64,000 bases of DNA from Bacteroidota bacterium (GCA_016713925.1 JADJOH010000008.1:186117-250116), one strand, 5' to 3'; positions 32,675 through 46,574 are shown, counted from the first letter of the stretch. The notes: generated by a model not told the origin, from the letters alone. Translations and numbers: made by a program.

Positions 32675-33696
32675 TTAAAGTAATATATTGTTTACGGGTT
32701 TCAAGGGTTGGGGAATATCAGGCATTTGAAACATCTCTTTTAAATCGATTTCAATGCTTCTGCTGATGGCTGTAATCGGTACATCGTTCGCGCTGCCTTC
32801 AAAAGGACTTTCCGTTGATTCCCCTATTTTCTCCATGGTGGTAAATATCCACGTTGATAATGCACTGAAAGGAATAGAAAGCCAGATCAGATCTTCACCC
32901 ATGGAATCAAATTCTTTCAGCATGCCCAGTGGGACGAGCGCTACAAAGATGCGAATGAAGTATAAATTCAAAGTGGCAAATTGCCGGGGGTAGGGAAAAT
33001 TTTTAATGCGTTCAGAAACGCCTTGCTGGTTATAAAATTCTACCAATAGCTTTTGCAATTCCATGTGTCGGAAATCTTCAATGAGTCCGCGGTCAAGCAA
33101 TTCACGCAGGTGATCGGATTGTTTAGCTATCAACTGTGCTGCACGATTGGACGTCGTCATCACTTCTTCTATTTCTTCGTTGCTTAGGTAGTGTTGCAAT
33201 TCTTCCTTCAGCACTTTATTATGTTCTTCCACGATGAACCACTGATCTTTGTACTCCTGATTGTGTTTTTTGTAAAAGCTTCCCATACCCGAGCCTCTCT
33301 CAGTTGGAAACGCAACGCTGTGAGCCATGCAAAATGATAGTTCATCAACCTGAATTTTAAAAGTTGAATTTCTTTTTCAGAGATTGCATCTTTCGCATGT
33401 TTATTCGTCACAAAATCTTTCACCATTATTCCCCAGCTCCTGCTGCCGTTGGTAATCGCGCCCCAGGCTTTTCGGGCTTCCCACATGCGATCATAGGAGG
33501 CGTTATTTTTAAAACCTACCACAAAAGCTACGGCAGTACCCAGCAATGCAATCGGCAACCAGGGAATAGAAAGCCATTTCCAATCCAACAATTCATATAA
33601 AACGACCGGAATGGCAGATATCAATAGTAGACCAAAGATGTCCCTTCGGGTCCAGTATAAAACCTCCTTTAACGAGAAGTTCTTTCCGCTATGCAT
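32675..33696 (-). CDS. bestrophin-family ion channel (frameshift near 33270)
   Basis: 'GFKNNASYDRMWEARKAWG' and 'ERIKNFPYPRQF...ESPFEGSANDVP'. Adding one T in GCTTTTACAAAA joins the two ORFs. Confidence 0.88.
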
Positions 33697-34808: not shown

Positions 34809-34907
34809 ACTTTCGGTAGTTTCTAAGTTGGTGTAAATATCTGAAAAATAAAAAACCCGACAAGAAAATTTCCTGCCGGGTTCCATTATTTAAAAAATCG
34901 GATTGTT

Positions 34908-37192
34908 TTATTTCATTTTTATCACTTTATTTCGGGCAAGTCGTCCGGTAACATGACTTACTTCCAGAAAGTAAACACCATCTTGCAGGAGCGATAACTC
35001 AAGGAGTTTCGAGTTCTGACCTGTGCTGATGGCTATATTTTCTTCTTTATAGACAATTCTTCCGTTAAGGTCGAATACGGTAATCGTAGCATCGTCCAGG
35101 GAAGCGTCGCTTTCGAAATCCAGGCGTAACATTTCCTTAAACGGATTGGGAGATGCAGTTATCTTTAATACCTCAGTCGTTTCTTTCACTTTTTCAATGG
35201 AGGATGGCATAACAGCCGGTGGAGGAAGAGTTCGCAAGGCAGTGTGCAAGGTGATGGAGCAGGGATTGATGTCCGCTAAAAAAGCAGTTCCACTGGCTGC
35301 GGTGAATCCCACATTTAACGTAACATCTACACCTGCAAGGAACCGTGCTTCGAAGAGGCTCCCGGATGTGGAAACAATTTCTACAGTTCCTGTTGTAATT
35401 ACACTTTCAATGGCCTGATTGGTAGCATCAGCCACCAGCGCCACGATCGTGCCCATAACTAATTGTGTATTGAAAGGACTCTGCGCTCCTACACCCACGG
35501 CATACCATGCATTGCCGGTCTGAATAGCCTGACTGGAGCATGAGCCATAAATATCGCTTGCGGCCTCCAGCCATGCATCGCGTCCGTCGATATAATCTGC
35601 CGTTCCCCAAAGATATTGGTGAGCGAGAAAGGCGATTTCTTTGGCATCCGCAATACCTATGGCCGACACGTTGTAGTAGTCTCCATTGCTGTTGTAACCG
35701 CTTCCGCCTTCACACATCAGGTAGAAGCAGTGGTTCTGCACACCGCTATTCGTATGTACACCACCGTTATCATTTGATCCGGAGTACCAGTTGGTACCAA
35801 GATAGGTATCGGGATCGCCGAAGCTGATGGGATCGGCCATATTCCGTATGGATCCGGTGCTTTTATCGTTTCCGACTTTCCAGGCAACGCCTGCGGGTTG
35901 AGTGCCTTCTGTATAGACTTCCACCACTTCACCAAAGATATCTGCGAAGGACTCATCCATCGCACCCGACTCATCCTGATAATCAAGATCGGCTGTATAA
36001 TCATCCACTCCATGCGTAAACTCGTGACCCACGATATCCAGTGTTGTGTAGGAATCAGTAGCGTCAGTTCCTGAAGTCCCATATCCAAAATCAAAATCTT
36101 CATTGAAAGAATCGTAACTGGCATTGTTACCTGTAGGATTTCCATTGTCGTCGGTGAATTCATATTTAATTCTGCAGTCGAGTGATCCACCGGCATCGTC
36201 ATAACTGTTCCAGCTAAAATAGGAAAGGAAGAAATTATACGTTTTTCTCATTCCAAAATTTAACTGCATACCATCGCCTGCTCCGCCGGTATTTACCGGC
36301 CATGTATTGGAACTGCTGCTGTTACATATCGGCGTTTCGGTGCCGCCAAAATTATCATCGATGATTTCTATCAGCACACCGCAATCATCCGTCAATTCCC
36401 AATATTGAGAGTTGTTGCAAGTGTTTCGCTGCGACGTGTAGATCGTTTGCACACCGTTAAAGGGAGTAGTAACATTGGTGGGTCCACAGCTATGCGTAAG
36501 CGGTAGTTTGTTGATGATACTGGCATCCTCTGCATCTACAAAGACCGTATACGATGTGGATCTCGTCATCGGCACATCAAATTTCCAGCAAAGACGATAG
36601 TCTTCTGCACTATAACCCGAACGTTCTCTTTTATACATAAACATTAATTCACCGTGAGGCGAGGGTCGGCCGCCGGATCCTTCTTTGATTTTCTGTAGCG
36701 TTCAACATAGCGAATGTCGGTCCAGCCATAATCAGTTGCCGGGAGATGGGCCAGCGCTGAAGCCAGTGCTTTATCTTCTCCAATGGACGGGATGATGTTT
36801 TTATGGAGATCATGTACCAGGCGTCCGTTTGCTTTTACTACGATTCCATCTTTCAGGTAGAGATTGGCCACCGCACCATGCACTTTTATATTCTTGTAAT
36901 ATTGCTGGTATTTGTACTGTTGCATACCGGTAAGGTGCATCTCCATACTTCTGTCGAACCGCATTTCATCATCCGCATTTAAAGCAAAGGCTTGCTTGTG
37001 CTGATGAAACAATGCTTCCGGAGTAAGTTGCAGGTTGTCTTTAAAATAAATCCAGCCTGTAGCAGGATTGGTTTTTGTAATGGCAGCAAGTTCCGCACGG
37101 GGTCCCTTGCTCAGTTGAGCGCTGGTGATATGTGTTGACAGCAATACTATTCCGAATAGTAAGAGGGCTGCGCTATAATTTTTGTTTTTCAT
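34908..37192 (-). CDS. M4 (thermolysin-like) metallopeptidase with FTP/PepSY propeptide and T9SS CTD (frameshift near 36657)
   Basis: Propeptide 'YKYQQYYKNIKVHGA'; HEFTH; 'GAMDESFAD'; 'GGVHTNSG'; 'LNVGFTAASG' module; CTD 'ASPNPFK...VFDLNGR...GVYFL'. Confidence 0.92.
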
Positions 37193-37212
37193 GGAGTTAC
37201 GTTTTAAAAGGA

Positions 37213-38814
37213 TTAATTCTTTTTTAACGCATCCAGTTCTGCTTTCAATGCTTTGTTACTGTCATTTAACTGAATGATATAGAGTGTAAGTTCTTCCACT
37301 TTTTCCAATAATTTTTGCTGCATTTCACCAACATGGTAGCTGCCTTCTTCTTCTATTTGAGAAGCGGAAGGGAGTCCGGGAAGATGATGGTTTTCTTCAA
37401 CATTTTTCGCCAGCTCATCAATACTCATCAAGTTGTAGTTATCGCTGAACACATAATCCGGCCAGGAGTTTTCGAGACGAACGCGCAACTCTTCGCACAT
37501 GACCTTACCTGCTACAGAGAGCATATATCCGCTTGCGGGAGAGTTGGTGCCAATCATTACATCACCATCTTCGTTGATACGGAGCGCATCCCCGGCATTT
37601 GTTCTGAAGATCAGATCGCCTGTGGTGTTTCCTGATGCGGTACCAATCTTCAAATCTGCAGTTGTAGACTGTATAAAACTCACTGCAACATTGCTGTTAT
37701 TGTAAAATTGAAGGAAAGCGTCCGCCCCTCTTAATCCGATTGCTTCTGCATTGGTATGAATTTGCAATTTTGCAGTCGGACTTGCAGTACCTAATCCAAA
37801 GTTTCCATTATTCATCATCGACATTCTCACCACATTGTTGGCATAGAAGTACATGTTACCACTCGTATTGTTTGCACTTAAACCCAGATTCAGATTTCCC
37901 TGATCGCATTGCATAAATGCCTTTGCTACGTTGGAGTTATGAAAGGTCATGGAGGGAGCTGTAGCATTGAGGCGCAGTAGTTCACCGGTACCACTAAGAT
38001 GAAGTTTCACCCCCGGAGACTGGGTGCCGATTCCCATATTACCGGAAGAGTTTACCAGCACCTTAGTAGTACTGTTTACTGATATACGGAAGGGACTTGT
38101 TCCTGATCCGGTATTTATATGTAACATGCTACTTGGATCCTCAATACCCACACCTAAACGGTCGGAGTAATAGCCACGTCCGTTGAAATAGGCTGCCCAA
38201 TCTCCCGCTCCGCTTGCATTTCCATACACCCCAATATTTTTATAGCTGCCCATCGCAGATCCATATACACCGATATTCCTGTCCGTTAGAGCAGCGACAC
38301 CACTGCTTATTCCTGTTGCCATACCATATACACCATAGTGAATATTTCCTGCATTGGTGTTTTTATTCCAACCCATGACACCTGCACCAACACTGCTATC
38401 ATCTTCTTTTACACCGAGGACACCGACATACTTTAAACCCGTCGGAAAAGTGCCGATGCCTAATGTCGCATTGCAAAATGCACCTAAGTATCCATTGGCA
38501 GCGAGTGTACCGGTGGAGTTGGAGAAACGGCCGGTCACTGACCCATAGATCAGGTTCTGACTGGTGGCCAGAGGCAATTGATCGGCTACGAGTAGACGAT
38601 ATTTCGTATCAATACTCGTATTAATACCCAACTTACCGGTAGCGCCTACAGTTAATCTTGTACTGTTATTGGTTTTTATGCGTAGATCAAGATTGTCGCT
38701 GGTACCCAGATATTGGGAGGCGGTTGTTCCTGCATTCCCCGAGAGGGACCAGGACTGTGCATTTACAGCGTTCGACGCCAGTATTAATGCAGTGAATAGA
38801 AGTAGGTTTTTCAT
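37213..38814 (-). CDS. secreted tail-fibre-like protein with S74-like C-terminal chaperone/coiled coil (paralog A)
   Basis: SPI signal + QSWSLSGNAGT; GN(M/F/V)GIGT repeats; 'WPDYVF...HHLPGLPSA...LLEKVEELTLYIIQL'. Confidence 0.85.
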   Translation of the reverse strand: MKNLLLFTALILASNAVNAQSWSLSGNAGTTASQYLGTSDNLDLRIKTNNSTRLTVGATGKLGINTSIDTKYRLLVADQLPLATSQNLIYGSVTGRFSNSTGTLAANGYLGAFCNATLGIGTFPTGLKYVGVLGVKEDDSSVGAGVMGWNKNTNAGNIHYGVYGMATGISSGVAALTDRNIGVYGSAMGSYKNIGVYGNASGAGDWAAYFNGRGYYSDRLGVGIEDPSSMLHINTGSGTSPFRISVNSTTKVLVNSSGNMGIGTQSPGVKLHLSGTGELLRLNATAPSMTFHNSNVAKAFMQCDQGNLNLGLSANNTSGNMYFYANNVVRMSMMNNGNFGLGTASPTAKLQIHTNAEAIGLRGADAFLQFYNNSNVAVSFIQSTTADLKIGTASGNTTGDLIFRTNAGDALRINEDGDVMIGTNSPASGYMLSVAGKVMCEELRVRLENSWPDYVFSDNYNLMSIDELAKNVEENHHLPGLPSASQIEEEGSYHVGEMQQKLLEKVEELTLYIIQLNDSNKALKAELDALKKN

Positions 38815-38874
38815 AGCTGTTTAAATTATTGTTCAAACTTATCCCTTTGGCCCGGCGATTTCACCTAACTTTTA

Positions 38875-38903
38875 GGGAACGGTATTTTGTTTGAGGAAAC
38901 GGT
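38875..38903 (-). promoter_or_regulatory. candidate LytTR-binding direct repeat
   Basis: ACCGTTTCC-N11-ACCGTTCCC on the - strand, upstream of the TAAGTTTG -7 box (38834-38841). Confidence 0.5.
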
Positions 38904-38946
38904 CGGGTATTGCTATTTTTTGTAATTTGGGGAACTGCACAGCGTT

Positions 38947-40908
38947 ATGAAAATCCGATTCCAATTGCTTGTTTTCTTCCTCAATCTGTTCAGTTTATCC
39001 TTTTCTCTTGCCGGCGAAGTGTTGCAGGAAAGACCTCAGGCAGCGCAGGAATCGCGTTGGAGCAAGGCATTGCTGGAGGCAAAAATGGATATCTATAAAA
39101 ATGCCTGTGATGACGCCCTAAAGATTTTTCTTGAGCTCAATGCTCTTCCCTATCCTTCAAATGAGGAACGCAGTATCTTGATTCAAGTATTCAAAAGCGA
39201 TTTGCTCTACTGTGCAAAAAATGCTGATTCCGCGCGCACTGTTTTTAATGCCATTCAAAAATATCAGGGCAAGAACAGGCTGGTAAACTATGAATACTTA
39301 ATGCTGCAAAGTAAATTTCTGTTTGATGAGTTTAAAATCAAGGAAGCGAATCAACTGCTTCAGAAAGCTTTTAATCTGGCTCATGAAATGAAGGATGCTG
39401 TTCGGAAAAGTCTTTGCGCCAACATGATTGCAAGAAATCTTACTGCACTTGATTTTTACGAGGATAGCTACAATTATCGAAAAATAGCATTGAAATTTGC
39501 GGACGGAGACTCGCTGATGCGCTCTGTTGCTTATTCCGGCATTGCGAATTATCATTATGTGCATACACATCAATATGATTCGGCGATTCACTATTACAAG
39601 ATAGCCAGAAAATTTTCACCCGGAAATAATAAAGTTTTAGAAACAACCGTGTTACTCAATTCGGCGGCCGCATTGCTGGAGTTGGGAAAATGGAAAGAGG
39701 CTGAGCAACAAGTTCGGGAAATAGAGAGTAGTCTCCCGTACCTCACTCCATTGATTATCGGAAATTATTACAATACACTTGGGTTTATTCTTATCTCTAC
39801 AGGGCGAAATGGAGAAGCGATCGAAATTTATAAAAAGGGTCTTGCCTACAATGAAGAACATAAGGATTTGGATTTGCAGGTACAGTTGCTAGGATTTATC
39901 AGTGATGCCTATGCTGCATCGGGTAATTATAAAGACGCCTATCACTATCATTTTCGCTTAGAGCAAGCGAAAGATAGTCTGCGAAAACTTCAGACGGATG
40001 AACTGCTGATTGAGAAAGACAAGGAATTTCAAACGTCCATTAAGGAAGAGGAAAACGCACGTTTGACAGCCGAAAATGATCTGCAATTGCTCACCTTAAA
40101 AGCGAAGAACCGGCAGCTGATAGGCGGATCTGTATTGATCGCATTATTGTTTGTCTTGTTAGCGATGGTTTTGAATAATTACCGAAACAAGCAACGGCAT
40201 ATCAAAGCACTTGATGCACTTAACGGGCAATTAACGGAACAGCGCGATGAGATTCTGCGCATCAATCAACTGTTGCAATTGAAAGTGTTGCGTACACAGA
40301 TGAATCCGCACTTCATCTATAATTGCCTGAACTCCATTTTACATCTTGTTCAGCAGGGAGAAAAAGAAAAGGCGGCCGATTATCTCCTTCGGTTTGCAAA
40401 GTTATTGAGACAAGTGCTGGATTTTTCGGACCGACAGTTTATAGAATTGGAAGAAGAAATCCAGTTCCTTAACCTGTATCTATCTCTTGAAAAAATGCGA
40501 CTTGGCGATAATTTTAATTATTCGGTTACATGTGATATGGATACGGCTGAAGAAGAAATTTCAATACCTTCACTGGTCATTCAACCCTTCGTAGAAAATG
40601 CCGTTTGGCATGGATTATCTACTAAGGAAAATGATAAAAGAATTGCTATTCGTTTTTCTATGGTTGAAAATCATCATCAAATGCATTGTATTATTGATGA
40701 CAATGGAATAGGCAGAGCGATGGCAGCACAAAAGAAAGAGAATACCTCTAAGCATGTTTCAAAAGGAATGGCTATTACCGAGGAAAGGTTGCAATTGTTA
40801 CGGTATAAACTCGAGGATCATCAGACAATTCGTATTATTGATAAAATTCCGGAAGAAAATAGTAGTGGTACCATTGTAGAACTGACATTACCTGTGGCGC
40901 AATTATGA
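38947..40908 (+). CDS. LytS-type sensor histidine kinase with TPR periplasmic domain
   Basis: TPR helices, one TM, 'LRTQMNPHFIYNCLNSI', 'QPFVENAVWHG', 'DDNGIGR'. Confidence 0.95.
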   Translation: MKIRFQLLVFFLNLFSLSFSLAGEVLQERPQAAQESRWSKALLEAKMDIYKNACDDALKIFLELNALPYPSNEERSILIQVFKSDLLYCAKNADSARTVFNAIQKYQGKNRLVNYEYLMLQSKFLFDEFKIKEANQLLQKAFNLAHEMKDAVRKSLCANMIARNLTALDFYEDSYNYRKIALKFADGDSLMRSVAYSGIANYHYVHTHQYDSAIHYYKIARKFSPGNNKVLETTVLLNSAAALLELGKWKEAEQQVREIESSLPYLTPLIIGNYYNTLGFILISTGRNGEAIEIYKKGLAYNEEHKDLDLQVQLLGFISDAYAASGNYKDAYHYHFRLEQAKDSLRKLQTDELLIEKDKEFQTSIKEEENARLTAENDLQLLTLKAKNRQLIGGSVLIALLFVLLAMVLNNYRNKQRHIKALDALNGQLTEQRDEILRINQLLQLKVLRTQMNPHFIYNCLNSILHLVQQGEKEKAADYLLRFAKLLRQVLDFSDRQFIELEEEIQFLNLYLSLEKMRLGDNFNYSVTCDMDTAEEEISIPSLVIQPFVENAVWHGLSTKENDKRIAIRFSMVENHHQMHCIIDDNGIGRAMAAQKKENTSKHVSKGMAITEERLQLLRYKLEDHQTIRIIDKIPEENSSGTIVELTLPVAQL

Positions 40909-41657
40909 TTAGAGCATTGATATTGGATGATGAAAAGGCATCACTGACCCAACTGCGTGAAAGCATTGAGCGGTATATTCCCGATATTACTCAGATATGG
41001 GCTACCTCTGATCCTGCTGAAGCGATGATGCTGATCAATGAACAACATCCGCAATTACTTTTTCTCGATATCGAGATGCCACAAATGAATGGGTTTGAAT
41101 TTTTGGAAAAGATAAAGGAACGAAATTTTGCCGTTATTTTTACCACAGCATTCAGTCAGTACGCGATCAAAGCTTTACGTTTTAGTGCACTGGATTATCT
41201 CTTGAAGCCGGTTCAGGAGGATGAGCTAAAGAAGGCCGTAGAACGATTCCGTGAACAGCCCGTTGCATTGGAACAAATGCAAAAGTTGTATGAACAATTA
41301 TTTGAAAATGTAAAAAGTGGTCATGAAACCGGTTTCAAATTATCATTGCAAACCGGGAACCGTATTTATTTTATTGCACCGGACGAGATCACCTGGTGCA
41401 AAGGTGATAATAACTATACCTTGGTGTATACAAAGGATGGCAGAGAGTTTACCATGAGTAAAACGTTGAAGGATGTTGACGAGATGTTGCAACCTTTCGG
41501 CTTTCTTCGGTCTCATAAATCATCGCTGGTAAATGCAAAGGAAGTGACTGCTCTTGACAATGAAGAACTGGTTTTAAAAAGTGGAGTACGCATTCCTGTT
41601 TCAAGACGAAGAATGGAGGATGTAAAATCTTTTTTGAGCGGAAAAGGTAAAGAATGA
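40905..41657 (+). CDS. LytTR-family response regulator
   Basis: REC domain 'LLFLDIEMP..NGF', 'ALDYLLKP'; LytTR 'FLRSHKSSLVN...VSRRR'; 4-bp overlap with the kinase. Confidence 0.96.
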   Translation: MIRALILDDEKASLTQLRESIERYIPDITQIWATSDPAEAMMLINEQHPQLLFLDIEMPQMNGFEFLEKIKERNFAVIFTTAFSQYAIKALRFSALDYLLKPVQEDELKKAVERFREQPVALEQMQKLYEQLFENVKSGHETGFKLSLQTGNRIYFIAPDEITWCKGDNNYTLVYTKDGREFTMSKTLKDVDEMLQPFGFLRSHKSSLVNAKEVTALDNEELVLKSGVRIPVSRRRMEDVKSFLSGKGKE

Positions 41658-41675
41658 AAAAGAATTCATGGTGTT

Positions 41676-42893
41676 TCATTTCGAAAATCTTCCTGACAAA
41701 CTACGCCAGGCCATAAATCCGCTGAGTGTAACCAGTAGTGACCCTGCCAGAAAGGCAGCACCGGGAAAATAAACGGGAGCATTTTCCCCTGTAAAGAAAG
41801 CGAAGAGGTTCGTCATCAGGAGTGGTCCGATGATAGAAGTGATGCTGATGAGACTTGTCAATGCCCCCTGCAGTTCTCCCTGCTCATTAGCCGGCACCTG
41901 ATTGGAGATGATCCCTTGCAAAGAGGGTCCTGCAATTCCACCGAGGCAATAAGGAATTAAGAAGGCGAACATCATCCAGCCCTTTGTACTGAATGCAAAT
42001 AAGGCGAGCCCGATGGCATATAACATCATTCCCACATATACGGAGCGGCTGGGTCCTAGTTTTGGATTGATGACGCGAACAAGTCCTCCCTGCACAATGG
42101 CGACACAAAGGCCGGCCATCCCCAGCGAATATCCTACCATGGCTTCGTTCCATTTGAAACGTTCCATTGTAAAGTAAGACCATGTGCTTTGTACTGCATG
42201 CGCTGCGATATAAACAAATACCAATGATGCTACTAAGCCAAGCACTACAGGGTAGCGTCCAAGATTTTTCAGCGATCCTATCGGGTTGGCCCTTTTCCAA
42301 TCGAAAGCACGACGATTTTCAACCGGTAAGGATTCTGGCAGAATGAAATAACCATAGAGCCAGTTGAGAAAGGTGAGTCCTGCCGCAGCGAGGAAGGGAA
42401 CCCGTGAACCAAATTGTCCTAATATTCCTCCCAGCACGGGACCGATAATAAATCCTATACCGAAAGCCATTCCAACGATTCCGAAATTTTGTGCACGCTT
42501 TTCCGGAGTGCTGATGTCAGCAATATAAGCAGTAGCTGTAGTGATACTGGCACCGAAAACACCGGCCAGCAAACGACCAAGAAACAGCCATGTGATAGTG
42601 GGTGCAAAGGCAAGAAAAAGATAATCGAGTCCAAAGCCAAAGAGAGATAAAAGCAATACGGGCCTTCTCCCATAGCGATCACTCAACCCACCAATGACGG
42701 GAGAGAAAAGAAATTGCATGATGGCATAGGAAAACATGAGCCATCCGCCATATGTAGAAGCTTCACTGATGGTACAGGATGTTAATTCCTGGATGAGCTT
42801 TGGTGTAACCGGAATAATGATACCCAATCCGATAATATCAATCAACAGCGTAATAAAAATAAAGGAGAGGGCGGGTGTTTTTGAACGGATCAT
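41676..42893 (-). CDS. TCR/Tet-family MFS efflux transporter
   Basis: '[14 protein letters not shown]' motif A, 'AYIADIS', 'YFILPES'. Confidence 0.92.
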
Positions 42894-43017
42894 TTTCTGT
42901 GAGGTCAAAATTATCATAAATATCTATCAATGAGTTAGGAATATTCACCGCATTTGGGGGTTGCACATGATTTATACGTTTTGTAGTTTGCGCCCCTAAT
43001 CATTTAATCAACCTACT

Positions 43018-44715
43018 ATGAAAAAGCTATTAATAGTGATGATGACAGGAGGTCTTATGACGCTTTCCGTCAAAACGAATGCGCAAAGCTGGTCGCTAAC
43101 AGGTAATGCCGGAACGAATTCCGCGACCGATTATATCGGAACAAGCGACAGTAAACCTTTAAAAATTAAAACCAATAATCAGGTCAGGATGCTGCTCAAG
43201 ACCAATGGATACGTCGGTATTGGTACACAGACACCTTCAACCAGGCTTCATGTGAATGGGGTAATTACTGCTACCGGTGGTACATCATCTGATTGGAACA
43301 CTGCTTTCGGTTGGGGTGATCATGCGCTGGCAGGATATCTAACTTCATTTACTGAGTTGGATCCAAAGGTAGGCGCTAATGTGACCAATTTTGTTTCCAA
43401 ATGGGATGGGTCGGCATTAGTAGGAAGTAATATTTTTAATTCAGGAAATAATTTTGGCTTGAATACTTCTACCATGATAGGATCAGCAAATTTTGTGGTG
43501 CAAAGTCCAAATGCAAGTGGTTTTGGTGGAATGTATGTGAATCAGACAGGAGCCGGTTTAAAGCCATTTTATGGATATGCTGTAAATGGGGTAGGTACTT
43601 GTTGGACTTCATTCGACCAAACAACAGGTAACTGGGGTGTTTTTAATGGAGGAGAGAGGTTGGTTGTAGATAATGCCGGTCAGGTGGGAATAGGAACATC
43701 TACTCCGGGTTATTTTCTGGATATTCAGGCCGGAACCGCATTGAGGGCATTAAATGCAGTTTCAAATGTGGTGGGAAGCACAGGACAAATTATCAACTTT
43801 GAGCGTACCAGTGCTCCTGCTTCAGCTAATGACATTGTTCAAATTAAAGTCCCTGCCGGCTCTCCAAATGATTTTCAGTTTATAGAAGCAGATAAAGGTG
43901 GATCTAATCGTTTTCAGGTGGATGGAGATGGAAGTGTGGGTGTTGGATTCAGCACATTGAGCACTGCACGTTTAAATGTGGATGGCTCCAATCCTGATAA
44001 TAAAAAAATATATGGCATATATGCTTCTGCTGATAGCGCATCTTCTGTATCAGCCGCAATTTATGGTGAGCATACAAGCGCAACGAGCGATGGTCGCGGT
44101 GTTTATGGAAAGAGTTCTGGTGGTGCCGGTATTGGTTATGGGGTTTTTGGAGAATCCGGCTATATTGGTACAAGAGGCTTAGCTTCCGGTTCAACTTACA
44201 CAGGCACTGCATATGGTTTATATGGTACAGCATCAGGTAGTACAGCCGGAACCCGAATTGGTGTTTACGGGTCAGCCAGTGGTGCGTCAACTGCAGAAGG
44301 CAATTGGGGCGGATATTTCCCTACAAAAGTATATACCTCTCAAATTCGCGTTGGAACTACAGGTGGCGCTACAGGATTTATTGCATGTATAGGTGGAAAG
44401 CTGATAGCAGAAGAAGTTCGTGTGGAATTGGAAGCAACATGGCCGGATTATGTTTTTGCAGACGGATATGATCTGATGCCGCTGGAGCAGTTGAAGAAAG
44501 AAATTAATCAGCATAAGCATTTGCCCGGTATTCCTTCCGCTGCTCAAATTGAAGAACAAGGTGGTGTGGATCTGGGTGCAATGCAAACCAAATTGGTGGA
44601 AAAAGTAGAAGAGCTTACACTCTACATCATTCAATTAAAAGAACAAAATGACAAGCTGCAGGATTTAAATGAAAAATTGCAAGTGCGTATGTCAGCGATT
44701 GAAAACAATAAGTAA
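43018..44715 (+). CDS. secreted tail-fibre-like protein with S74-like C-terminal chaperone/coiled coil (paralog B)
   Basis: SPI + QSWSLTGNAGT; G.VGIGT repeats; 'WPDYVF...KHLPGIPSA...LVEKVEELTLYIIQL'. Confidence 0.85.
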   Translation: MKKLLIVMMTGGLMTLSVKTNAQSWSLTGNAGTNSATDYIGTSDSKPLKIKTNNQVRMLLKTNGYVGIGTQTPSTRLHVNGVITATGGTSSDWNTAFGWGDHALAGYLTSFTELDPKVGANVTNFVSKWDGSALVGSNIFNSGNNFGLNTSTMIGSANFVVQSPNASGFGGMYVNQTGAGLKPFYGYAVNGVGTCWTSFDQTTGNWGVFNGGERLVVDNAGQVGIGTSTPGYFLDIQAGTALRALNAVSNVVGSTGQIINFERTSAPASANDIVQIKVPAGSPNDFQFIEADKGGSNRFQVDGDGSVGVGFSTLSTARLNVDGSNPDNKKIYGIYASADSASSVSAAIYGEHTSATSDGRGVYGKSSGGAGIGYGVFGESGYIGTRGLASGSTYTGTAYGLYGTASGSTAGTRIGVYGSASGASTAEGNWGGYFPTKVYTSQIRVGTTGGATGFIACIGGKLIAEEVRVELEATWPDYVFADGYDLMPLEQLKKEINQHKHLPGIPSAAQIEEQGGVDLGAMQTKLVEKVEELTLYIIQLKEQNDKLQDLNEKLQVRMSAIENNK

Positions 44716-44742
44716 ACCGGTTAAACCCTCAATTCTTACTCT

Positions 44743-46524
44743 ATGAAAAACAAACAACAAGTAAGGAAGATGGTGTTTAGCGGATGGATAGTGTTGCTGC
44801 TGATCTTAAACGTGTCACTCGTTTCTGCACAACAATTCATTCGTTATCTTGACCGTCCTCTGCTTACAGAAAAACAACAGCATCATGCGAATGCGCTTAT
44901 ACATGACGAAACAACAGCAGGGTACTGGTATATAGAAGTAGATGCTTCACTGATAAACAAGAAGAGCACCTCTTTAAACTTATCATTGCCTGATCATTCC
45001 AATCTGCTGATTGATCAGATGACCTATACCCAAAGTTTCGCTTCGATGGTTTCCGGTTCCGGAAAATTTGAACCGGGTGGTGATTTCATCGTTACCGAAC
45101 ACAATGGCATGATTACTTCCCGTATCGGGAATAATCAATACAGCTATATGATTTATCCGTTATCAGGTGATAAACATATTTTAATCCATCTAAACGTACA
45201 GGCTTTTCCGCACGATGAGTCTGATGAAGGTTACCAGCATATGCTGAAAGAAGGGCAGAAAGTAAAAGAGAGAGAGCACGTTGATCCCGAAACCGGTGAA
45301 GTTATTTTCGATGGTTCTCCCGAAGCAGGAAATTGTAAAGTACGTTGCCTCGTTGCCTATACGGATGATGTGGGTACTGCACTTGCAGATCCTATTGGTT
45401 TTGCGGAATCCTGCATTCAGGCCAACAACACGTCTTTCACAAACAGTGCTGTGAACTTTCAGGTGGAACTGGCCTGTGCCTTCCAAACCACCTATGCAGA
45501 AAGCGGAAATTCATTTACGGACAAAACAAATTTCCGTACTAACGGAGATGGTATTATGGATGATATATTTGACTGGCGCATTTATTATGATGCTGATCTC
45601 TGTCATTTGCTGGTGAACAGCCTTTCAAATGGTTGTGGTGAGGCTTGGGCAGTTTCTGTTTCTGTTTACGCAGATGCGTTCTGCGTTACGGATAGAACCT
45701 GTGCTGTAGGAAATTTGACTTTCCCACACGAGTATGGTCATCTGTATGGATGCCGTCATGATGTGTTTGTGGACAATACCAATACCCCTTATGCTTACGG
45801 GCATGGAAAGACAGTAACAGGAAACTATCGTACTGTAATGGCCTATTCGGATGCGTGTGGTGCTTCCGGATGTACCCGGGTGGCTTATTTCTCTAATCCT
45901 GCAATTACTTATAATGGTGTATCAACCGGAACGGCCGGATCAGCAGATAATGAAAGCGCGAGTGAAGCCTCACGTGTTGCTATCAGTGGGCTGGAGGTTT
46001 CCGGAACGAATAAGGCTTTCCCTTCCTGGACACATGATGATGGAGAGTTTGCCGATGTGTTGGCAATTAACTCAGTGATAAACAATACCACCTATGTCAT
46101 GAATAGCGGCTCAGAAGTAGTTTGGAGAGCGGGTACGTTTCACACTTTGAATCCGGGTTTCTGGGCAAAGAGTGGTTCTAAATTCGTAACGGTGTTTGAT
46201 AACTGTACAGTACTGGCACTGGCAGGAAATGTGGCTTCAAAGGTCAATGCTTCAGAGAATACCTTTGCATCTGTACGTGTCCAGCCCAATCCATTTAGTA
46301 GCCGCTTCGATGCTATCGTAGAAATGAAGGAAGCCGGCGCACTTAAACTGGAACTGCGCGATGCTACAGGAAAATTGGTTCAGGTAGTAGCCGAACAAAA
46401 TGATGCAGAGAAAGGCAATTATCAATATTCCATTGACATGAGCGAGAATGCCGAAGGAATGTACTTCATGGTGGTGCGAATGGGAAATGAAATGAAAACG
46501 GTGAAGTTGATTAAAACAAAATAG
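44743..46524 (+). CDS. metzincin (M12/reprolysin-like) metallopeptidase with T9SS CTD
   Basis: HEYGHLYGCRH (HExxHxxGxxH), Met-turn 'RTVMAY', 'LNPGFWAKSG' module, CTD 'VQPNPFS...DATGK...GMYFMVV'. Confidence 0.92.
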   Translation: MKNKQQVRKMVFSGWIVLLLILNVSLVSAQQFIRYLDRPLLTEKQQHHANALIHDETTAGYWYIEVDASLINKKSTSLNLSLPDHSNLLIDQMTYTQSFASMVSGSGKFEPGGDFIVTEHNGMITSRIGNNQYSYMIYPLSGDKHILIHLNVQAFPHDESDEGYQHMLKEGQKVKEREHVDPETGEVIFDGSPEAGNCKVRCLVAYTDDVGTALADPIGFAESCIQANNTSFTNSAVNFQVELACAFQTTYAESGNSFTDKTNFRTNGDGIMDDIFDWRIYYDADLCHLLVNSLSNGCGEAWAVSVSVYADAFCVTDRTCAVGNLTFPHEYGHLYGCRHDVFVDNTNTPYAYGHGKTVTGNYRTVMAYSDACGASGCTRVAYFSNPAITYNGVSTGTAGSADNESASEASRVAISGLEVSGTNKAFPSWTHDDGEFADVLAINSVINNTTYVMNSGSEVVWRAGTFHTLNPGFWAKSGSKFVTVFDNCTVLALAGNVASKVNASENTFASVRVQPNPFSSRFDAIVEMKEAGALKLELRDATGKLVQVVAEQNDAEKGNYQYSIDMSENAEGMYFMVVRMGNEMKTVKLIKTK

Positions 46525-46543: not shown

Positions 46544-46574
46544 AAAAGGCAACCTGGTTTATAGGTTGCCTTTT
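46544..46574. terminator. bidirectional rho-independent terminator
   Basis: aaaaggcaacct/aggttgcctttt perfect stem between convergent genes. Confidence 0.85.

Follow-up and report, generated by a model that had tools for sequence, protein, structure and literature searches.

Between positions 34,908 and 46,524 of a 64,000-nucleotide stretch from a Bacteroidota bacterium (GCA_016713925.1 JADJOH010000008.1:186117-250116; the whole stretch is called the window below), two gene cassettes each encode a fiber-like protein and a secreted zinc protease. We analyzed these cassettes, A and B, because an initial annotation, made from the sequence alone, had described them as paralogous modules mirrored around a LytS/LytTR two-component system (Table 1). 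The listing of open reading frames (ORFs) bears out that both cassettes point outward and that the fiber gene of each (fibA or fibB) is followed, after 20 nt in cassette A and 27 nt in cassette B, by a gene for a zinc protease bearing a type IX secretion system (T9SS) C-terminal sorting domain (CTD). A strong hairpin lies after each protease gene, and no comparable hairpin lies between the fiber gene and its protease gene in either cassette, so each cassette looks like a two-gene operon from its sequence. The mirrored layout proved only partly right. The kinase and regulator genes do lie between the cassettes, but a gene for an MFS transporter lies there as well, and the arrangement is therefore not a simple reflection around the two-component pair. 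This transporter is probably not part of the module.

Table 1. Genes and features of the two cassettes and the region between them (positions counted from the first letter of the window).
Feature	Position	Strand	Description	Evidence
fibA	37213-38814	-	533 aa, Sec-exported MAT-like fiber protein without CTD	ORF listing, paralogy to fibB
fibB	43018-44715	+	565 aa, Sec-exported MAT-like fiber protein without CTD	ORF listing
Protease A N-terminal ORF	36644-37192	-	Signal peptide and FTP propeptide of M4 peptidase	PF07504 E 1.6e-8
Protease A catalytic ORF	34908-36644	-	M4 thermolysin-like (HEFTH), coathanger and T9SS CTD	
Protease A 3-coathanger stack domain (NF045639)	35256-35351	-		NCBIfam hmmscan and genome profile search
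Protease A T9SS type A C-terminal sorting domain	34923-35150	-		PF18962 residues 499-574; TIGR04183
M4 gene frame-break zone	36668-36698	-	Frameshift mutation or assembly indel	tblastn of intact homologs
fibA C-terminal domain and coiled coil	37234-37512	-	Residues 435-527	Local HMM E 1.8e-41
fibB C-terminal domain	44395-44667	+	Residues 460-550	Local HMM E 1.3e-42
Protease B	44743-46524	+	593 aa; metzincin (HEYGHLYGCRH), coathanger and T9SS CTD	
Protease B 3-coathanger stack domain (NF045639)	46078-46209	+		NCBIfam hmmscan and genome profile search
Protease B T9SS type A C-terminal sorting domain	46285-46512	+		PF18962 residues 515-590
Terminator-like hairpin closing cassette A	34852-34884	-	15 pairs and T run	
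Terminator-like hairpin closing cassette B	46544-46574	+	13 pairs and T run	
TPR-containing LytS-type histidine kinase	38947-40908	+		His_kinase PF06580 E 2e-23, TPR repeats, HATPase_c
Response regulator with LytTR DNA-binding domain	40905-41657	+		Response_reg E 5.8e-23, LytTR E 1.2e-21
MFS transporter between regulator and cassette B	41676-42917	-		MFS_1 E 1.6e-53
Direct repeat, candidate LytTR site, fibA/kinase divergent intergenic region	38870-38903	-	ACCGTT(T)CC(C)T(C)AAA, two copies	

The two fiber proteins are related at both ends. Each starts with a Sec-type signal peptide ending ...NA/QSW. Their N-termini share 50% identity over 70 aa (E 6e-14) and their C-termini 52% identity over 107 aa (E 1e-39), and the middles are divergent, repeat-rich and only loosely alike. 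Neither protein matched a family when the Pfam and NCBIfam libraries were scanned, and a T9SS CTD was sought in both by Pfam, NCBIfam and a motif check without being found. Alignment and domain scans thus agree with the initial annotation that these are CTD-less paralogs with common termini. Additionally, about 12 genes in the 4.64-Mb assembly share the fibA/fibB N-terminus over its first ~70 residues (tblastn). Six of these paralogs carry a T9SS CTD of their own, and the canonical S74 motif SDxRxK is present in five of the six, with Pfam confirming the combination of S74 and CTD in two. The motif occurs in six paralogs overall, three of them Pfam-confirmed as S74. Four full-length paralogs and one relic have another C-terminus, WPDYVF...HLPG...EELTLY, and lack a CTD.

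In arrangement, these proteins are reminiscent of the mosaic adhesive trimer (MAT) fibers, which are trimeric adhesins of the predator Bdellovibrio bacteriovorus with S74 and non-S74 subfamilies, all paralogs having a conserved β-rich domain of about 130 aa after the signal peptide (Caulton et al. 2024, PMC10769870). Both sets have a signal peptide and an N-terminal region common to many paralogs, and both are split into S74 members and members with some other C-terminus. They also appear to share a β-helical body with VG.GT..P...L capping loops. Residues 41-82 of the fibB product match the solved tip of the Bdellovibrio Bd3182 fiber (8ojn; phmmer E 6.5e-5), and the MAT fibers Bd3182, Bd2133 and Bd1334 make up the top five Foldseek matches (E 2e-4 to 1e-3; 8onc, 8ond and 8oml among them) of a fibB structure model that is itself of low confidence (mean predicted local distance difference test score, pLDDT, of 62). 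These matches suggest that the fiber body resembles the β-helical body of MAT fibers. The fibers are probably trimeric. Weaker fold matches of the same model were to T4 gp34 and to parts of extracellular contractile injection systems, and the middle region of the fibA product matches PHROG tail-fiber families. Such similarities would be expected if fibA and fibB were true tail-fiber genes left in the chromosome by a prophage or a contractile injection system, but each protein carries a Sec signal peptide, the surroundings hold no phage or injection-system genes, and the ~12 paralogs are scattered over the chromosome, several of them with T9SS CTDs. We regard such a remnant as extremely improbable.

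The C-terminal domain common to the fibA and fibB products, which we refer to as the tail, has the consensus WPDYVF...HLPG.PSA...EELTLYIIQL and is accompanied by a coiled coil. No Pfam or NCBIfam model exists for it, and no source gave an informative protein name; we searched for it with a local hidden Markov model (HMM) made from alignment A1. Across 1.84 billion representative proteins, a profile search identified 37,746 clusters, defined at 50% identity, with E ≤ 1e-3 and 34,584 with E ≤ 1e-10, and in nearly all of the best 150 matches the tail occupies the extreme C-terminus. Modeling of fibB residues 440-565 with AlphaFold2 (AF2; pLDDT 89, predicted template modeling score 0.75) gave two short strands, an ordered WPDYVF stretch, a pair of short helices around HLPGIPSA, and a terminal helix of 45 residues that shows a coiled-coil pattern. 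Proteins P0121-P0126 (677-1975 aa) hold three copies of the tail each, and may be fusions of tandem fiber genes or read-through gene calls.

The initial annotation had labeled this C-terminus S74-like. In phage S74 fibers and tailspikes (PF13884; endosialidase 3GW6, T5 pb1 4UW8) the S74 domain, an intramolecular chaperone, sits in the same position and likewise ends in a long helix, and the sister fibers in this genome have the same canonical SDxRxK motif as the phage proteins. The fibA and fibB products, in contrast, have no Ser-Lys motif of this kind (SD.R.K) and no PF13884 match at E ≤ 0.01. When the tail was aligned with the canonical S74 domains of this genome, the hhalign probability was 9% and the last helix alone aligned. 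Foldseek returned no PDB match with E below 5 for the tail model from a library that included 3GW6 and 4UW8, the query being a monomer model of a likely trimer. A search of the PDB with the tail sequence profile likewise found no relative with a solved structure, and nothing significant was found in a viral structure library, where the best match (E 9.5e-3) was an unnamed giant-virus protein. Because the Pfam, profile-profile and fold tests all failed, the S74-like label is unsupported, and we reject homology between the tail and S74. Both fibers are more safely described as "non-S74 MAT-like".

The enzymes of the two cassettes belong to different families. Protease A matches Peptidase_M4_C (E 7e-40), Peptidase_M4 (E 1.4e-12) and Por_Secre_tail (E 3.8e-11), and its FTP propeptide, HEFTH catalytic domain and C-domain are all present, in two ORFs. 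Protease B matches Reprolysin_5 (E 8e-13) and Por_Secre_tail (E 1.7e-8), is Mep72-like by NCBIfam, and has a zinc motif (HEYGHLYGCRH) that conforms to the M12-like metzincin pattern HExxHxxGxxH. The families first proposed, M4 and metzincin, each with a CTD, were therefore correct, except that no single open frame encodes protease A. The two proteases are alike solely over their last ~170 residues (28% identity, E 7e-7), which comprise an accessory module and the CTD. This module, first noticed as the motif LxxGFxAxSG in both enzymes, is indeed shared, and we identified it as the "3-coathanger stack" domain NF045639 of NCBIfam, a domain of ~40 aa that lies just before the CTD. With an NCBIfam cut-off of 26 bits, the coathanger domain of protease A scored 28.6 bits by hmmscan and 30.9 bits in a search of the genome (C8:221372-221467), and that of protease B scored 25.9 and 28.2 bits, respectively (C8:232194-232325). 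In their Sec signal, catalytic domain and Por_Secre_tail CTD, proteases A and B resemble T9SS type A cargo peptidases (PMC5445135), but they add the coathanger domain and an obligate CTD-less fiber gene upstream, and the literature we searched describes neither feature.

The propeptide and catalytic ORFs of the M4 gene lie in different frames, and tblastn places the point at which intact homologs switch frame within a short zone near their junction (Table 1). Intact M4 homologs are 752-762 aa long, and the N-terminal ORF aligns to residues 44-184 of 760-aa homologs. A genome of the same family (G023) has an orthologous fiber-M4 pair in which the M4 peptidase is an intact protein of 762 aa. A bestrophin-family gene 3 kb away (32675-33696, minus strand) is likewise split into two overlapping ORFs, which cover positions 30-141 and 137-288 of the Bestrophin_2 profile. 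With this second frame break within 4 kb, indels in the assembly are as likely as real pseudogenes, and the two breaks suggest one or the other of these origins.

Within this genome, the coathanger domain strictly follows the tail. NF045639 has five matches in the whole 4.6-Mb genome, and all five lie in operons behind the five copies of the tail, in the first or second gene downstream. Its carriers are protease A, protease B, a Reprolysin-like gene after the fiber at C8:419610-420590, an M23 peptidase two genes after the fiber at C8:832346-833794, and the second gene after the tail relic at C2:1158602. An iterated local coathanger HMM contributed one extra match only, in the same C2 operon. 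The gene directly after each of the four full-length tail-bearing fibers encodes a CTD-bearing zinc peptidase (M4, Reprolysin_5 in two cases, and M43-like). A CTD on a neighbor is by itself only moderately informative here, because CTDs are common in this genome: the base rate at which a close co-directional neighbor carries one is 8.2%. The genome has an unusually large T9SS type A secretome, with a CTD on 340 of 3659 ORFs (9.3%). We thus dropped CTD enrichment alone as the explanation for the pairing; the coathanger domain is the specific signal.

Two loci outside the window show variations on this arrangement. The relic at C2:1158300-1158800 retains ~60 aa of a fiber tail (KHLPGVPSA...EELHLYIFEL). 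Ahead of it lies a tandem repeat, read as YQLPATS in one frame, and after it come four CTD genes, two of which carry coathanger domains. At C2:242071-245089, a fiber with a Pfam-confirmed S74 domain and no CTD (C2:243698-245089) is followed 46 nt downstream by a CTD-bearing protein of 526 aa in which no coathanger domain was detectable. To judge by its sequence, this locus may represent a second kind of fiber-partner pair.

We wanted to know whether the association between tail and coathanger extends to other organisms. Scanning one genome per species for the tail showed that it is encoded in at least 591 stretches (591 of the 600 examined), mostly from Bacteroidota, with a few metagenome-assembled genomes labeled Ignavibacteria, WOR-3 or Zixibacteria. 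The best 80 stretches were kept as loci. Of the 76 kept loci that have a downstream gene, 65 have it in the same orientation and no more than 150 nt away, and NCBIfam places NF045639 on 33 of these 65 neighbors. With the local HMM, a coathanger domain was found in the first downstream gene at 37 of 79 loci, in the second or third at 4, and upstream at 3, while 15 of the 79 were cut by contig ends. The enzymes that carry the domain are diverse: M23 (6), M4 (3), reprolysin (3) and M43 (3) peptidases, further partners of the astacin, papain-like C1, subtilase S8 and trypsin-like types, and 15 F510_1955/Sortilin-BNR glycosylhydrolases. The fiber N-terminus tends to match the class of enzyme, as fibers of the QSWSLTGNAGT type go with zinc proteases and those of the QNVGIGT type with BNR glycosylhydrolases. 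The CTD follows the coathanger domain in about half of the partners found elsewhere. At none of the 79 loci does a tail precede a CTD within one protein.

The reverse test, starting from the coathanger domain, gave a clearer result. Among 61 genomes drawn evenly across the class, the coathanger domain is present in 20 and the tail in 32; 12 genomes contain a tail without a coathanger domain and no genome the converse, so that the tail is present in 20/20 coathanger genomes (Fisher p 3.6e-8). Of the 30 coathanger places in this sample, 29 share strand and contig with a tail place and lie 0.2-3.5 kb downstream of it. Another sample, taken phylum-wide, yielded 11 coathanger places outside this genome, of which 7 are clear, 1 is split by a contig end and 3 are exceptions. 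Overall, 32-33 of the 37 coathanger copies in the sampled Bacteroidota outside this genome lie just downstream of a same-strand fiber gene. We conclude that the real link is between the C-terminal domain of the fiber and the coathanger domain of its partner, and that it takes the form of a near-obligate gene linkage. The initial proposal of a reusable fiber with an exchangeable enzyme is strongly supported by these counts (5/5 here, 29/30 and 7-8/11 elsewhere). Its reading of the pairing as adhesin plus protease holds as far as the module goes, but partners also include BNR-type glycosylhydrolases, and what ties the genes together is neither the protease nor the CTD.

That a domain of ~40 aa is kept on unrelated enzymes and is nearly always encoded after a tail gene is most simply explained if the two domains bind each other. 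We propose, with a probability of roughly 0.6, that the tail docks onto the coathanger domain, that fiber and enzyme form one complex, and that the CTD of the partner may supply export in trans. In such a complex, the first gene of each cassette would provide a Sec-exported, probably trimeric, MAT-like β-helical fiber that ends in a helical domain and coiled coil. The second would provide a secreted enzyme, here a zinc protease, with the coathanger domain just before its T9SS sorting domain. Binding of the tail to the coathanger domain would then let a binding fiber carry the enzyme as its exchangeable catalytic head or foot, and the partner's CTD could give T9SS export and surface attachment to the pair in trans. 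This last step is suggested by the paralogs with the same N-terminus, which have either S74 and a CTD in cis or a tail and a partner with coathanger domain and CTD. Finally, labor may be divided such that the fiber binds what the enzyme cuts, and the tracking of enzyme class by fiber N-type fits this division. The pair may serve in the capture and digestion of protein or prey.

The same correlation also suggests stable orthologous pairs, which would be expected if the two proteins were merely co-regulated and did not interact. The fiber would then bind the substrate or prey and the enzyme digest it, with their linkage reflecting descent and duplication of an ancestral operon. We consider this explanation unlikely, because the catalytic domains have been swapped many times while the ~40-aa coathanger domain was kept, and because the coathanger domain hardly ever occurs without a tail gene close by, a retention that is hard to explain without a role in pairing. 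Alternatively, the coathanger domain or the tail could be a trans-acting assembly factor, one that transiently aids folding or trimerization without a stable complex. The tail takes the position that S74 has in paralogs sharing its N-terminal type, and its long terminal helix in the AF2 model suits trimer nucleation. The order of fiber gene and then helper gene also recalls phages, in which tail-fiber assembly (Tfa) proteins are encoded just after the fiber. However, the helper in this case would be no more than a small part of large enzymes from many unrelated families, which is odd for a chaperone, and we found no likeness to S74 or to known Tfa folds; transient assistance of this sort does not seem probable to us either. 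A third alternative is that the downstream protease matures the fiber by cutting off its tail, as a trans equivalent of what S74 does in cis. Although all four partners of the full-length fibers in this genome are zinc proteases, elsewhere the same coathanger domain sits on glycosylhydrolase-like and other non-proteases, and we think maturation by the partner very unlikely.

Several observations weigh against the docking model. First, 20 of the 79 loci have a complete downstream region with no detectable coathanger domain; many such loci, in Flavobacteriia and Pedobacter, are tandem arrays of fiber genes that share the tail. Conversely, 3-4 of the 11 coathanger copies in the phylum-wide sample have no tail gene nearby. 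In this assembly, protease A is frame-broken. Additionally, about half of the partners elsewhere end at the coathanger domain, often with a ...G.C terminus, and have no CTD, so that hitchhiking on T9SS is not a general rule. The co-occurrence of a fiber Cys with the terminal Cys of the coathanger domain is also weak: 15 of 30 fibers whose partner has the Cys, against 12 of 41 without a coathanger partner, have a Cys close to the tail, and a tail-coathanger disulfide is not supported. The more elaborate proposal, in which a dedicated docking pair loads enzymes onto CTD-less trimeric fibers and the fiber rides T9SS by means of its partner's signal, all for the digestion of prey or particles, is one that we hold tentatively and would bet against as a whole.

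Among the tandem arrays, five loci (L030, L035, L044, L046 and L062, from Allomuricauda, Leptobacterium, Pedobacter, Flagellimonas and Tenacibaculum) hold 3-5 fiber genes apiece, every one with the tail at its end. No coathanger domain is present in the gene that comes first after these arrays; a cut downstream ORF in L044 has one.

The genes between the cassettes do encode a LytS/LytTR system, with a sensor that combines His_kinase and HATPase_c domains and a regulator that combines receiver and LytTR domains. The direct repeats ACCGTTCCCTAAAA and ACCGTTTCCTCAAA, 20 nt apart, lie upstream of both fibA and the kinase gene and are the sole matches in the window with ≤2 mismatches. By its spacing, this repeat is a possible LytTR-type site. 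A search of the window found no LytTR-like repeat upstream of fibB, and no kinase or LytTR gene lies near the orthologous fiber-M4 pair in G023. The initial annotation had inferred two-component control of the cassettes. Since the adjacency is not conserved in G023 and the repeat occurs upstream of fibA but not of fibB, this proposal is not supported.

The module shares features with several known systems. Compared with MAT fibers, the non-S74 C-terminus described here is no variable binding tip but a conserved domain made of helices and a coiled coil; gene order links it to a separately encoded coathanger enzyme, and it occurs in Bacteroidota together with T9SS sorting domains. Phages also attach separately encoded tips or enzymes to their fibers, as with T4 gp37 and gp38 and the branched tailspikes of CBA120 and G7C. 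In those systems, too, an add-on gene follows the fiber gene and a small adaptor attaches an exchangeable, often enzymatic, protein. The fibers here differ in that they are cellular and Sec-exported, bear no sequence or fold relation to the phage proteins, and have a putative mode of attachment. A similar logic is found in cellulosomes, where cohesin-dockerin pairs display unrelated enzymes on scaffoldins via one small non-catalytic module. In both cases unrelated enzymes share a small, non-catalytic, near-C-terminal module for a structural partner. The domains are unrelated, however, and in place of a multi-cohesin scaffold there is one fiber gene for one or two adjacent enzyme genes, with predicted binding. 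Taken together, what we have found are MAT-like or phage-like, probably trimeric, fibers whose conserved but undescribed tail is linked with exchangeable enzymes via a second small domain.

A full-text search of the literature returned no description of the coathanger domain, of the WPDYVF motif, or of a gene link between T9SS cargo and fibers, and the tail-coathanger pairing rule, although widespread in Bacteroidota, is apparently undescribed. It links a tail domain that has no model and spans tens of thousands of clusters to a second small, uncharacterized domain on secreted enzymes. If export in trans is true, it would to our knowledge be the first case of a protein without a sorting domain being exported by T9SS via a partner. 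If the tail and coathanger domains bind, they would give Bacteroidota and related lineages of the Fibrobacteres-Chlorobi-Bacteroidetes (FCB) group, which in soil, water, sludge and guts are major degraders of both protein and polysaccharide, a general way to couple fibers to hydrolases. The result would be enzyme-armed surface fibers that capture and digest prey or particles.

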